A DNA stretch of 64,000 nt from an uncultured Candidatus Poseidoniales archaeon (GTDB lineage: Archaea; Thermoplasmatota; Poseidoniia; Poseidoniales; Poseidoniaceae), in NCBI GenBank assembly GCA_902605365.1, contig CACLCM010000001.1, forward strand, positions 82,595 to 146,594, read 5' to 3'. Shown here in pieces: positions 30,235-34,849 of the stretch; positions within the stretch are counted from its first letter, which is position 1, and the number at the start of each line of letters is the position of its first letter. The translations under genes and the position numbers were made by a program. Under the pieces are notes generated by a model. The model saw only the letters and a list, made by a program, of their open reading frames with translations. It was not told where the DNA came from and searched no databases.

Positions 30235-30245
30235 CACGGTGTGTC
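30235..30245 (+). repeat. Left direct repeat of islet (cacggtgtgtc)
   Basis: Exact 11-mer shared with 34839-34849. It lies 39 nt after the esterase stop and 41 nt before the DUF262 gene stop. Confidence 0.55.
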
Positions 30246-30286
30246 CTAGACCTATTTTAATCAAATTCAACTATCGAGTTTGTACA

Positions 30287-32605
30287 TCACTCGTATTCTT
30301 GCCACCTTGATAAAATCCATTTCGTGAGAAGTTTCGATCTTTCATCATGCGATAAATTGTCATATCCTAACGAATATTTTTCTGCTGTTAATTTTATTCT
30401 TCTGTACTTTGCCTGATTAGAATAATAGTACTGTTTACAGTTTTTCGGTTCCTCGGTCATACCAAATTTTGAATCCCAATCAAAATTACTCGCCTCACTA
30501 TTTTCATATGGTTGCAAAATTGTTAGATTCCCAATTGTGTTACTATATTTTTGATGCCACTTCTGATAATCTGGCTCTTCGCCTTCAAGGATTTTAATTT
30601 CATCAGAAAATTCCCATGTTTCCATTCTCGGAACCCATTTTGTATATGTCTCTGGGATGATATGTTCAATGGTGCTTTCAGTGTATTTTTCAATCACGTA
30701 ATCTTTGTGGCCCACCTTACTTCCAGACATTTCATATTCGTTCAATAAATACCTAGCCAAAGCTCTTTTTGAGTACATATTTGTTGATTTAAGTTCTCTA
30801 GTAACAGATTCATCGTCAGGATAATCATATCCAGATGTTGATTTTAACTTTCTAAGTAATGAGTTTGAATCTGGTTTTTCTCCACATGTCTTCCACATTC
30901 CTCTGAAAAAGTTTGTGAATCCTGCGTTTTGTAAACTACAGATGTTACGGCGTACTAGATATGATTCAATGACGTCCAAACACTTGGCAACCTCATCCTC
31001 TTGAGATTGAGTTCTTCTGTAAAATTGAAGTAATTCCATAAGGTACGGGAACGTCGTTGTAGGAGGATTATATCTTCGTAAACGAAGCAGCCGTTTCCAA
31101 ATCTTTTCACTTGTTCTAATTGGATCTGTTTTGCCACCATCGGCCTCCAATATTTCATTCTCTGGGAATTCTCGACAAAGAGAGATGTACACTGGGGCCA
31201 TTTCTTTTAATTCAGCAATCATTGCCGCTGATGTAGATTTTTTCGTTTTCCAATAATGTCTTAGTTGGACATACATCTTTCCTTTTGTGACATTTTCAAT
31301 AGGCCTAGTTAATGTAAAAGGAAAATAATAATCATCCAATTTCGATTTGACGTTGTTATTCGATTTGAATGAAAAGGATTCTTCATACTCTCGCATACTT
31401 CCTTCATAAAGATCATTAGCAGCTTCTGGCATATCTATTAGATTTTCAAAAATGAGGTTTCTGACTAAGTCTCCTGCTGATAGCTTTTTTCCAGTATTAT
31501 TCAAACGCTCGAAAATCATGTAAGGGTTTATTTCATTTGGAAGAATAATCATCGTGAAAAACAATCGATCTTTGATTATTTCAAACAAATATTCTAATTT
31601 TTCTCTGACTACATTTCCCTTTGAATCTCTAACCCTAGCTTTTACTCCCTTAATTAGATCGTTTTTCCAGGCATTGATTAATCTAACATTCTTACCTTTA
31701 TCCTGATTTAATTTTGGCTGTCCTAATGTTGGTATTAGATATTTTAGAATCTCGTTAAATTGTTTGGTATCAGAAATAGTTGGTACAATTGTGGGTGTGT
31801 TTTTTCTTGTCCCTGTTTTCACTGTCAAAGGGTCAGCAAAATTCTCTGCTATATCTCCAAACCCATTATCTTGGGCAACTTTGGTGATTGCACAAATTAG
31901 AGCATACAATGTGGTCAATCTTTGCTGCCCATCAATTACCCAATTTTCCTGAGTGCTTGATCCCGCTCCTGGCTTTGAGATACTAACCAAAATAGCGCCC
32001 AAGAATTGACTGTTTTCGTTGCCATGCCAAATATCATCGATATCACTCCATAGAGTGTCAAACTCGGTTTTTTCCCATTTGTAACGTCTTTGAAACATTG
32101 GCATTACGTAAATTTCTGTTCCATTAAGCAAAGTGCCTATAGTTTCTTGAGTTAAGGTAAGGTCTTCGCTTTTTGTATATATTCTATCTTCATTAGAACT
32201 TGGAATTGGATACTCCTCATATTGAATTACTGTCTCATTATCATTATCCAGATTATGCTCGATAGTCAGAGTTTTTTGCAGGATGAGACAAATTAAAACT
32301 TCCTCTTCTTCGTCATAATAAATCTCCATTTCATCATCTAGGTTTCCGAGATCTTTGATGTTAGAAATTCCAAATCGTCGATCACCTCTTGTTCTCGAAC
32401 GATAAATTGACATTTGTCCAATCTGTTTGGATTCTCCAATTCGAATTTGTATTGGCACCACAACTCCATTTTCCCTGCCATTTTTCATTTTTTCATAATC
32501 ACAGATTTCTAATTTACGAAGTAGTTTCCTGAGAGACGGTTTGGAATCAAATAGGTTCTTACCCCAGTTATTTGCAGTGAATACATACTTGGGTCTTTCT
32601 TCCAT
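30287..32605 (-). CDS. DUF262 (ParB-like NTPase) + DUF1524 (His-Me finger nuclease) protein, GmrSD/type IV restriction family, with unassigned N-terminal domain of about 145 aa
   Basis: VMPMFQRRYKWEK and VIDGQQRLTT are the DUF262 motifs. STIEHIIPE and IGNLTILQPYENSEASN are the DUF1524 motifs. The start is 4 nt downstream of the methyltransferase stop. Confidence 0.8.
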   Translation of the reverse strand: MEERPKYVFTANNWGKNLFDSKPSLRKLLRKLEICDYEKMKNGRENGVVVPIQIRIGESKQIGQMSIYRSRTRGDRRFGISNIKDLGNLDDEMEIYYDEEEEVLICLILQKTLTIEHNLDNDNETVIQYEEYPIPSSNEDRIYTKSEDLTLTQETIGTLLNGTEIYVMPMFQRRYKWEKTEFDTLWSDIDDIWHGNENSQFLGAILVSISKPGAGSSTQENWVIDGQQRLTTLYALICAITKVAQDNGFGDIAENFADPLTVKTGTRKNTPTIVPTISDTKQFNEILKYLIPTLGQPKLNQDKGKNVRLINAWKNDLIKGVKARVRDSKGNVVREKLEYLFEIIKDRLFFTMIILPNEINPYMIFERLNNTGKKLSAGDLVRNLIFENLIDMPEAANDLYEGSMREYEESFSFKSNNNVKSKLDDYYFPFTLTRPIENVTKGKMYVQLRHYWKTKKSTSAAMIAELKEMAPVYISLCREFPENEILEADGGKTDPIRTSEKIWKRLLRLRRYNPPTTTFPYLMELLQFYRRTQSQEDEVAKCLDVIESYLVRRNICSLQNAGFTNFFRGMWKTCGEKPDSNSLLRKLKSTSGYDYPDDESVTRELKSTNMYSKRALARYLLNEYEMSGSKVGHKDYVIEKYTESTIEHIIPETYTKWVPRMETWEFSDEIKILEGEEPDYQKWHQKYSNTIGNLTILQPYENSEASNFDWDSKFGMTEEPKNCKQYYYSNQAKYRRIKLTAEKYSLGYDNLSHDERSKLLTKWILSRWQEYE

Positions 32606-32609
32606 GTTA

Positions 32610-33908
32610 TTACTCGTAAGTTAATATTGATTTAATTCTTTCACCAATCGATTTCGCCATAAATGGAGGGACAGCGTTTCCAATTTGAGTGTATTTTGGA
32701 CACTCTCTTTCAAAAATACCCTCACTTGGTTTTCCCGCACGACGATCTCCACCAGTAGTTCTTGGCCCTAAGAATACATGATGATCTGGTAATGTTTGAA
32801 GACGAGCCCATTCTCTAACAGAATATGTCCTAGGAACTGAATAATGAACGTAATCATCTGGTATTGATTGACAAGTCATTGTAGGATTATTTCCCTTCCA
32901 TCTTCTTGGAGTAAACGATTGATTGTTTTTCTTAGTGCGTAAATGTTCAGGACAGTCTTTCATATTGCACTGATTATCAATCATGAATTGAAATCTCTCT
33001 TCAGTTGATGGACGATGATTTGAAAACTCGTGATCTGTAAGGAGATGCTTTCTCCAATTATCGCCTAACATGGCACGCATTTGTTTTTGGTACTCTGTTT
33101 TTGGTTTCTTACGATGCCTAGGTTTTTCTTCTATCCAACCTTGGAAATTTAAATCATCAATTGCATCAATGATGTCAGGAGGAATTAGTCCATTTCCAAT
33201 AGGAAATAATCCGCCATTGTTCCTTAATTCACCACTATAATTTGACTTTCCTCCCTGAAAGAACTTTTTTTGACGGGGATTAAATTTAATCATGTCGAAT
33301 TCGCCTTTCGAATAAACGTCATGCCTAACCCCCATGATCATGACACGTGGACGGTTTTGAGGAACTCCGAAATTGTACGCATGAAGTAATGTTGGTTGGA
33401 TTTTGTATCCTTCGATGCTCTCAAATTCTTTCCATACCCTCCTAAATACCTCTCCTTTCCTTGCTTTCTTTTTTTTCCATTTAGCTGTAAGTAAGCCTTC
33501 CACATTCTCAAATAAGAAAACCTTAGGTTGAAGTATATTGATCACTCTAATCATTTCTTGGAAAAGGTAACTTGTTGGGATATCTTTAGTTTCCACTTTC
33601 TGACTTCTGCGAACTTGACTACGTGAATATTCTTGACAAGGAGGGCCTCCACAAAGCAAGTCAAGTTTACCTATGCCTCCTAATATTGGTAGCAGTTCCT
33701 TTTTGATAATGTCATTGGATAACACATCGACTATGTTTCCTACAAATGGTATCGCATCAGGGAAATTGGCTCGAAAGGATGCTGCTGCATTCACATTTAC
33801 CTCATTGAAAGCTACGCATCTAAACCCCGCCCCTTCCAAACCTCTAGTTAATCCGCCGCACCCTGCGAACAAATCAACACTTGTCAGATTCCTTCGCTCT
33901 CCCATCAT
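32610..33908 (-). CDS. dcm: DNA (cytosine-5)-methyltransferase
   Basis: Motif I DLFAGCGGLTRGLEGAGF, motif IV GGPPCQEYS, motif VI LFENVEGL, motif VIII QNRPRV, motif X GNAVPP. Confidence 0.9.
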   Translation of the reverse strand: MMGERRNLTSVDLFAGCGGLTRGLEGAGFRCVAFNEVNVNAAASFRANFPDAIPFVGNIVDVLSNDIIKKELLPILGGIGKLDLLCGGPPCQEYSRSQVRRSQKVETKDIPTSYLFQEMIRVINILQPKVFLFENVEGLLTAKWKKKKARKGEVFRRVWKEFESIEGYKIQPTLLHAYNFGVPQNRPRVMIMGVRHDVYSKGEFDMIKFNPRQKKFFQGGKSNYSGELRNNGGLFPIGNGLIPPDIIDAIDDLNFQGWIEEKPRHRKKPKTEYQKQMRAMLGDNWRKHLLTDHEFSNHRPSTEERFQFMIDNQCNMKDCPEHLRTKKNNQSFTPRRWKGNNPTMTCQSIPDDYVHYSVPRTYSVREWARLQTLPDHHVFLGPRTTGGDRRAGKPSEGIFERECPKYTQIGNAVPPFMAKSIGERIKSILTYE

Positions 33909-33929
33909 TTGTTGTGTGCCAACACCTGG

Positions 33930-33936
33930 ATATAAA
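33930..33936 (-). promoter_or_regulatory. TATA-box-like element upstream of methyltransferase (would give a leaderless or near-leaderless mRNA)
   Basis: The minus strand reads gggTTTATATcc. The element is centred about 26 nt upstream of the ATG at 33908, matching archaeal TATA-to-TSS spacing. Confidence 0.3.
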
Positions 33937-33977
33937 CCCTGGCTTTAAACAATCAATTCACACCAATTAAAGCAGTT

Positions 33978-34696
33978 TTAGTAATTAGTTCTAACCAAAA
34001 TTCGACTGACTTGTTTGTGAGACCATTTTCCTCCTCGCTTGGCAGGAACGCCACACTCATTCAATTCTCTTGCAATCTCTGAAACCTTAATGCCGTCTTC
34101 GTGATACCTTGCATGGATGTATTCAATCCACTTCTGTTCCTCTTCATTCTCGATGAAGTTGTTGTCCTCATCCACATCCCAACCGTATTTATCGTAGGTG
34201 AATCGCTTTCCTGTATCTTTGAGATGCTGTAAGGCCATACAGGTTCGCTCGCTGATGAGATTCCTCTCCATTTCACCAAAGGCAGCCAAGATGGTAATCA
34301 GCATCCTGCCAACTGCTGAAGACAAATCAAGAGGTTGCCCTCCTGATTCACAGAATTGAATTCCTACTCCAAATTCATCTAATTCTTCTACTGTAGCAAG
34401 GCAATCGATGGTGCTGCGAAATAATCTATCCATTCTGTAAGCAAAAATGTGCTTAATTTTCTGCTTAAGGATGAACGCTTCATCTGCTTAGCAGCAGGTC
34501 TTGACCACAATGGCACCTTGGCACTCACTCCGTCATCGATGAAAATATTCTCATCAGGAAGCAGTAAATTACGAAATTCTGCGTTAGCTTTTCCTTTGGC
34601 AATTTGAGCATCTATGCTCACTCCATCCTCCGCTTGACGAGTTGTTGATACTCGAACGTAGAGAACGCATTCTTCTGCTTGTTTCTGCTTAGCCAT
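33978..34696 (-). pseudogene. Serine recombinase (resolvase/invertase type with recombinase/HTH C-terminal part), interrupted by a frameshift near 34472-34490
   Basis: The upstream frame gives MAKQKQAEECVLYVRVSTTRQAEDGVSIDAQ...DDGVSA...RPAAK. The other frame continues ADEAFILKQKIKHIFAYRMDRLFRSTIDCL...AAFGEMERNLISERT...GGKWSHKQVSRIL. The two halves are ORFs 34388-34834 and 33978-34433. Confidence 0.75.
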
Positions 34697-34838
34697 CAAT
34701 CTAGATTTATCCGGCTTGGTATTTACACTCACGCGACGGCCAAAAGTTCGGACACTGGGTTGGTGTGTCCGTCTTTTTCTGCTTGTAGAAGCAGAAGTAA
34801 AAGTGGATTTTCGGGTTGCTATATGGTCGGCCATACCG

Positions 34839-34849
34839 CACGGTGTGTC
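34839..34849 (+). repeat. Right direct repeat of islet (cacggtgtgtc)
   Basis: Exact 11-mer shared with 30235-30245. It lies upstream of the recombinase and 55 nt before the next plus-strand gene. Confidence 0.55.

Follow-up and report, generated by a model that had tools for sequence, protein, structure and literature searches.

We analysed a stretch of 64,000 nucleotides (nt) from an uncultured Candidatus Poseidoniales archaeon (the window; contig CACLCM010000001.1) and found that a nuclease gene of the GmrSD family at 30287..32605 on the minus strand, encoding 772 amino acids (aa), begins with an extra N-terminal domain. This domain (residues 1-110; 32276..32605, minus strand) is predicted to be a B3-like DNA-binding pseudobarrel, as indicated by AlphaFold2 (AF2) modelling, a Foldseek search, and conservation in six homologues. 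We propose, at a probability of roughly 60%, that it is a sequence-specific, methylation-sensitive DNA reader by which a GmrSD chassis of the Type IV kind becomes the R subunit in a restriction-modification pair; the analysis itself shows the predicted fold, the family membership, the intact catalytic motifs, and the strict pairing with a methylase, and from these we infer the DNA binding, the methylation sensitivity, and the coupling to the nuclease. In the proposed mechanism, residues 1-110 would form a pseudobarrel of the EcoRII-N/UbaLAI-N type tethered by an acidic linker of ~40 residues to the GmrSD core, and the nuclease, together with a translationally coupled C5 methyltransferase, would constitute a restriction-modification pair that travels on a small mobile islet. 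The B3-like domain would recognise a particular short DNA sequence and bind it only if the cytosine in it carries no methyl group, as EcoRII-N does; this binding would anchor or license the core, which would depend on nucleoside triphosphate (NTP); the core would then nick or cut nearby DNA, and the methylase would protect the DNA of the host.

An initial annotation of this DNA had pointed to an unassigned region of about 145 aa ahead of the DUF262 signature, and our translation of the open reading frame (ORF) is identical, letter for letter, to the sequence quoted there. The signature VMPMFQRRYKW starts at residue 167, and residues 1-155 gave no match in Pfam (even at E < 10), NCBIfam, the PADLOC models, or the PDB sequences, in agreement with that description. 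A full-length AF2 model built from only five sequences was too poor for use, with a predicted local distance difference test (pLDDT) score of 42.8. With a 52-sequence alignment of the domain, residues 1-112 were modelled with a pLDDT of 90.2 and a predicted template modelling score (pTM) of 0.80, and the confidence is low beyond this point. The model contains β-strands at residues 6-8, 43-56, 59-69, 76-80, 92-98, and 103-109 and α-helices at residues 11-16, 23-31, and 83-86. The resulting element order, β1-(β2)-α1-β3-β4-β5-α2-β6-β7, is that of the B3/EcoRII-N domains, with β2 appearing as a two-residue bridge at 18-19 and with one extra short helix at 11-16. The canonical B3 order, as in the RAV1 B3 structure, is β1-β2-α1-β3-β4-β5-α2-β6-β7. 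The core of the B3-type domains is a pseudobarrel of seven strands (PMC12065111). The compact, β-rich module suggested by the initial annotation is thus borne out by a confident model with the pseudobarrel element order, and residues 1-110 are predicted to be folded rather than disordered.

The Foldseek search of this model against the PDB returned plant B3-DNA complexes at ranks 1-4 and 10, including FUS3 (6j9b), LEC2 (6j9c), and VAL1 (6j9a and 6fas), one of the outcomes that had been named beforehand as signs of a reader. FUS3 was the best match (E 0.011, probability 1.0), with template modelling (TM) scores of 0.52/0.59. The B3 matches together have TM scores of 0.47-0.59 across 107-112 aligned columns, and the remaining matches among the 50 listed have TM scores of 0.22 or less. 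The domain therefore superposes on solved B3-type domains with moderate strength, and on the basis of the model, we regard a B3-like fold for residues 1-110 as quite probable. The same predicted fold was also observed in a 127-aa viral protein (BFVD entry A0A646QVF9; Foldseek E 2e-7, TM 0.65), which may be a free-standing viral copy of the reader, for example, a decoy or a regulator.

The proposed length of the domain holds in part: residues 1-110 form the folded, conserved module, and residues 111-152 (32150..32275, minus strand) are a variable acidic linker. The N-terminal stretch is kept in four close homologues with 54-63% identity, so that it is neither absent nor poorly conserved among the nearest relatives. 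Conservation is strong across residues 1-110, as in the invariant block GQMSIYRS.TRGD.RFGISN, and collapses across residues 111-152, where the pLDDT is 22-24 in the full-length model and below 50 in the alignment-based model. These residues have an isoelectric point of 4.1 and are probably a flexible tether. Two more distant homologues (P0063 and P0064), which are 40-42% identical in the core, retain a recognisable version of the domain, and it is missing from the homologues that come next, which are about 580 aa long and 32-33% identical. The four close homologues, which come from marine metagenomes and are 772-776 aa in length, have the same start position as the window protein. An in-frame stop precedes the ATG at 32605 with no other start in between, and this ATG lies 4 nt past the stop codon of the C5 methylase gene upstream. 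We rejected a wrong start codon or a non-coding sequence as a source of the N-terminal stretch because the start is conserved and the nuclease and methylase genes are coupled.

The two best-conserved blocks of the family lie at the positions through which EcoRII-N touches DNA. In EcoRII-N, the DNA is contacted by an N-arm, consisting of a helix, a short strand, and a loop, and by a C-arm, consisting of the β4-β5 hairpin, and C5 methylation of either strand abolishes the binding (PMC2770665). By position, residues 8-22 and 59-80 of the window protein would be the equivalents of the N-arm and the C-arm of EcoRII-N, the latter also matching the C-arm of UbaLAI-N. The putative N-arm (VFTANNWGKNLFDSK; 32540..32584, minus strand) is a conserved block in the 52-sequence alignment and corresponds to the family motif T.T.L.KSI.DA. 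The putative C-arm (32366..32431, minus strand) is a β-hairpin carrying the basic loop RSRTRGDRRF, and conservation within the family peaks here, with Tyr68 and Arg77 invariant and Gly74 and Asp75 present in at least 90% of the sequences. The basic patch noticed in the initial annotation was found again here, since the hairpin at residues 59-82 has six Lys/Arg residues against one Asp/Glu.

Behind the linker, the window protein is a GmrSD-type nuclease. It contains a DUF262/GmrSD_N domain (ParB-like NTPase; residues 156-386; 31448..32140, minus strand; Pfam PF03235, E 1.9e-32, 113 bits) and a DUF1524/GmrSD_C domain (His-Me/HNH nuclease; residues 595-724; 30434..30823, minus strand; Pfam PF07510, E 2e-16, 61 bits). 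Both scores exceed the Pfam cut-offs and the expected motifs are present, which places the protein in the GmrSD family; the best PADLOC matches are the GmrSD-like models Orf5 and HEC-06, all of which begin at about residue 150. The DUF262 motifs FQRxxxW and DGQQR are invariant in five homologues, as are EHIIP (EHxxP) and the downstream residues of GNLTIL...ENSEASN (H-N-N) in DUF1524; therefore, the core is probably active, judging from its sequence.

The gene directly upstream encodes a 432-aa C5 DNA cytosine methyltransferase (32610..33908, minus strand; Pfam PF00145, E 1.9e-56; NCBIfam TIGR00675), separated from the nuclease gene by 4 nt. A C5 methylase stands immediately upstream in all five domain-bearing GmrSD-type proteins (the window protein, P0006, P0005, P0063, and P0064), and it is absent at the seven loci of three homologues that lack the domain (P0065, P0094, and P0072). 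The window system thus departs from Type IV enzymes, which have no cognate methyltransferase. The domain could nevertheless bind 5-methylcytosine or a hypermodified base, in which case the enzyme would be a true Type IV or IIM enzyme and the methylase would serve another purpose or site. This would fit the characterised members of the GmrSD family that are modification-dependent, such as GmrSD and BrxU, as well as the added reader domain that Type IV enzymes typically bear. We consider it improbable, because the methylase gene is tightly coupled (a 4-nt gap or an overlap) in all five domain-bearing homologues and a methylase accompanies the same domain in 106 of 120 listed loci of the MvaI type described below. 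Moreover, those B3-like readers of restriction enzymes that have been characterised to date recognise unmodified sequence, and a reader of the PUA, SRA, YTH, or EVE type was rejected, with no such fold among the Foldseek matches listed. We therefore favour a reader of an unmethylated target over a reader of a modified base, because of the methylase partnership and the behaviour of EcoRII-N. The initial annotation had proposed that the N-terminal domain reads DNA or a modification and thereby sets specificity; the B3-like fold and the occurrence of the domain family on methylase-linked nucleases speak for a DNA reader, while a modified base is disfavoured as its target.

We next describe the domain family at large. 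A profile built from five close sequences was searched against 1.84 billion representative proteins, and 57 representatives were found at E < 1e-3, with the domain mostly at residues 30-120 of the host protein; no Pfam or NCBIfam model recognises the family. An MvaI_BcnI nuclease domain is present in 17 of 55 scanned representatives, and it lies C-terminal to the N-domain, at about residues 160-400, in all six proteins whose coordinates were checked. The 55 also include one protein with GmrSD_N only and one LRR-Roc-COR-TIR protein, and many are short. We also encoded the family motif LYRPxTKxGDPRxW as a degenerate DNA pattern and looked for it in a single genome of each species. At least 120 species-genome loci match the motif, and the domain is encoded in all 120 loci listed, mainly from Bacteroidota and also from Proteobacteria, Akkermansia, Firmicutes, and one Methanobrevibacter. 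Fusions of the domain to an MvaI-like nuclease occur in 113 of the 120, and the C5 methylase is typically 0-10 nt from the nuclease gene, with exceptions mostly at locus edges. In one locus (L105:3223-6132, minus strand), the domain is fused to a GHKL (HATPase_c_3) ATPase of 970 aa adjoining a C5 methylase (neighbour gene L141:1914-3365), which looks like a MORC-like restriction-modification variant with the same reader. The MvaI fusions, the C5 methylase neighbours, and the GHKL fusion therefore identify the domain as a mobile module of restriction-modification nucleases.

With MvaI-like, GmrSD, and GHKL-ATPase partners alike, the domain occurs together with methylases that are related to each other. 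This could also mean that the domain docks onto the partner methylase or another protein instead of binding DNA; its joint transfer with the methylase family, despite exchange of the nuclease, would then be accounted for. Such a docking role is the least likely of the alternatives that we weighed: the domain is predicted to be a DNA-binding pseudobarrel whose best-conserved blocks sit at the DNA-contact positions of B3 domains, it also occurs on proteins without a methylase in the locus (L058 and the LRR-Roc-COR-TIR protein P0010), and UbaLAI acts on DNA as a monomer (PMC5766183).

Along its whole length, including the target recognition domain (TRD), the window methylase has 40-43% identity to the methylases that partner the enzymes combining the domain with an MvaI-like nuclease. 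The reader and the methylase therefore look like a joint inheritance from an MvaI-type system whose cutter was replaced, as far as their sequences tell. The methylase aligns with E. coli Dcm in its catalytic N-terminal half only, at 27% identity. A guess at the target from the methylase was dropped, as the TRD fails to align with that of Dcm, M.HaeIII, or M.HhaI and only the catalytic half does so.

A close architectural parallel is UbaLAI (Type IIE, CCWGG; PMC5766183), whose combination of a B3-like domain and an MvaI-like nuclease is that of most relatives of the window's domain. UbaLAI and EcoRII (EcoRII-N, PDB 3hqf and 1na6) share with the window system an N-terminal B3-fold domain, which is predicted here, a nuclease, and a cognate methylase, but UbaLAI-N and EcoRII-N have no detectable sequence similarity to the window's domain. 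Their nuclease is of the PD-(D/E)XK type, whereas that of the window combines a DUF262 NTPase with a DUF1524 His-Me finger, which keeps it outside Type IIE, whose enzymes read one site with both an effector and a PD-(D/E)XK domain and need two copies of it. In UbaLAI, the N-domain acts as a handle on one CCWGG site and the catalytic domain nicks another (PMC5766183). By analogy, the window's N-domain might be an effector only, binding a second copy of the site to relieve autoinhibition or to tether the enzyme, with the DUF262/middle-domain core choosing where to cut. EcoRII-N and UbaLAI-N indeed serve as an allosteric effector or a handle and not as the sole specificity element (PMC2770665, PMC5766183), in GmrSD and SspE, the DUF262 domain and the middle domain have been described as DNA sensors (PMC12065111), and the long flexible linker would fit a tether. 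Against this, the nearest domain-less relatives of the GmrSD core have no methylase, and therefore the methylation-matched specificity seems to have come with the N-domain. In addition, we know of no sequence-specific GmrSD core, which we also count against a purely effector role, so that we judge this role unlikely, though less so than the binding of a modified base.

Other systems resemble the window system in part. In the case of LlaJI, a B3 reader re-aims a Type IV (McrBC-type) chassis at unmodified DNA with C5 methylases paired (PMC12707154), as we propose here. The LlaJI engine consists of a McrB-like AAA+ GTPase and a McrC-like nuclease, whereas that of the window is a single-chain ParB-like NTPase with HNH; LlaJI has two methylases for an asymmetric site, and the window locus has one. 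GmrSD, BrxU, and SspE share the two Pfam domains of the window core with intact motifs but have no counterpart of its N-domain. GmrSD and BrxU, which have no cognate methylase, cut modified DNA, and SspE, which senses phosphorothioate, illustrates that a host modification system can employ such a nuclease as its restriction arm. In the Menshen system, NsnA carries a PS-B3-1, PS-B3-2, or EcoRII-N sensor and, like the window protein with its predicted fold, combines an N-terminal B3-fold domain with a DUF262 NTPase (PMC12065111). The window protein differs from it in having its own DUF1524 nuclease and a coupled methylase, and no NsnB ABC-ATPase or NsnC gene follows; membership in Menshen (NsnA-NsnB-NsnC) was rejected, as the next downstream gene is an unrelated plus-strand gene outside the islet. 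One family member, P0014, which consists of the domain and DUF262 only, may be of the Menshen NsnA kind. BfiI and NgoAVII also parallel our proposal, in that a B3-like reader gives specificity to a non-specific nuclease beside a methylase, but their reader is C-terminal, their nuclease is of the PLD type, and they belong to another sequence family.

Several observations weigh against a B3-like reader of unmethylated DNA and have to be set beside the evidence above. The fold match is moderate (best E 0.011, TM 0.5-0.6), and EcoRII-N, UbaLAI-N, and BfiI-C are not among the 50 Foldseek PDB matches listed. At E < 10, Pfam returned nothing for any of the 52 family members, B3 (PF02362) and EcoRII-N (PF09217) included, the family profile had no match among the PDB sequences, and hhalign of the family profile with three EcoRII-N sequences from Enterobacterales genomes gave a probability of 0.1%; the assignment to a B3-type family thus has no sequence or profile similarity to the curated families behind it. 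It should be added that UbaLAI-N is itself only 18% identical to EcoRII-N (PMC5766183), and low identity is usual in the superfamily. The characterised enzymes of the GmrSD family are modification-dependent or modification-sensing, and the sensor is considered to be DUF262 itself (PMC12065111). Nucleases that are close homologues have partner methylases sharing only 33% identity, and the N-domain shows no matching shift; either these methylases share one target or the coupling is looser than proposed. Finally, site avoidance points to no target. In the genome-wide counts for G000, GATC, AGCT, and CGCG are strongly depleted (observed/expected 0.28, 0.44, and 0.49, respectively) and CCWGG mildly so (0.79), but the depletion is a lineage trait and the islet is apparently recent. 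The depletion of GATC, AGCT, and CGCG suggests past or present restriction pressure unrelated to the islet.

Taking these points together with the family survey, we still favour the methylation-sensitive reader, and we think that the system likely originated from a UbaLAI-type system, consisting of a B3-like reader, an MvaI-like cutter, and a methylase, in which the cutter was replaced by a GmrSD cassette. A stronger claim has about an even chance in our estimation: this would be the first restriction enzyme in which a new B3-like family reads a specific sequence and a GmrSD engine, single-chain and NTP-dependent, attacks unmethylated DNA there or nearby, and it would have arisen through the swap of an MvaI-like cutter, with the reader and the methylase retained. 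If this is true, the GmrSD chassis, like McrBC in LlaJI, would switch between modification-dependent and modification-blocked action by exchange of the reader alone. Type IV, hence modification-dependent, is the routine annotation for proteins of the GmrSD family, and this clade suggests that they can be re-aimed at unmodified DNA by a reader and a methylase, which would change their annotation in surveys of defence islands. The B3-like family is widespread (at least 120 species, mostly Bacteroidota), marks restriction-modification nucleases, and could be curated as a new model. It would also offer manageable material for work on DNA reading and the sensing of cytosine methylation by B3 barrels, and it may supply a new recognition module for enzyme engineering.

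Some relatives of the window system have different companions. P0005, whose core is 66% identical to that of the window protein, pairs with a 386-aa methylase that has only 33% identity to the window's and 78% identity to the methylase paired with P0063, a much more distant nuclease; this is a methylase swap among close nucleases (L002/L010 versus the window and L001). The loci of P0063 (L010-L012) carry a Vsr very-short-patch repair endonuclease and a 153-aa gene directly downstream of the methylase-nuclease pair. The Vsr mismatch endonuclease is the usual companion of 5-methylcytosine, and we count its presence in favour of the proposed reader. P0065, the closest GmrSD homologue without the N-domain, adjoins MksE/MksF (Wadjet-like) genes at L013 and L014, and its loci are a defence-island context without a methylase. 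The domain also stands at the head of proteins of more than 1100 aa, namely, L058:4639-7998/L142 (Pseudoalteromonas luteoviolacea) and P0010; one of these contains LRR, Roc-COR, and TIR domains, one other gave no Pfam match, and no methylase was seen in locus L058. On such proteins, the domain may be the DNA-sensing front end of an abortive-infection-type effector.

The nuclease and methylase genes lie with a frameshifted serine recombinase on an islet of 4.6 kb (window 30235-34849), the guanine-cytosine content of which is 35-37% as against 41-46% in the flanks. No homologue of the nuclease was found in 24 genomes of the same genus and 16 further genomes of the same order, and the islet therefore looks like a recently acquired mobile cassette. 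The serine recombinase (33978..34834, minus strand) is split into two overlapping frames, the ORFs of which match the two halves of Pfam Resolvase, the second also matching Recombinase; the split is either a frameshift or an assembly error, and the islet may have been immobilised by it. The islet is bounded by an 11-bp direct repeat, CACGGTGTGTC, at its left edge (30235..30245, plus strand) and its right edge (34839..34849, plus strand); the exact sequence occurs twice in the window, where 0.01 copies would be expected.

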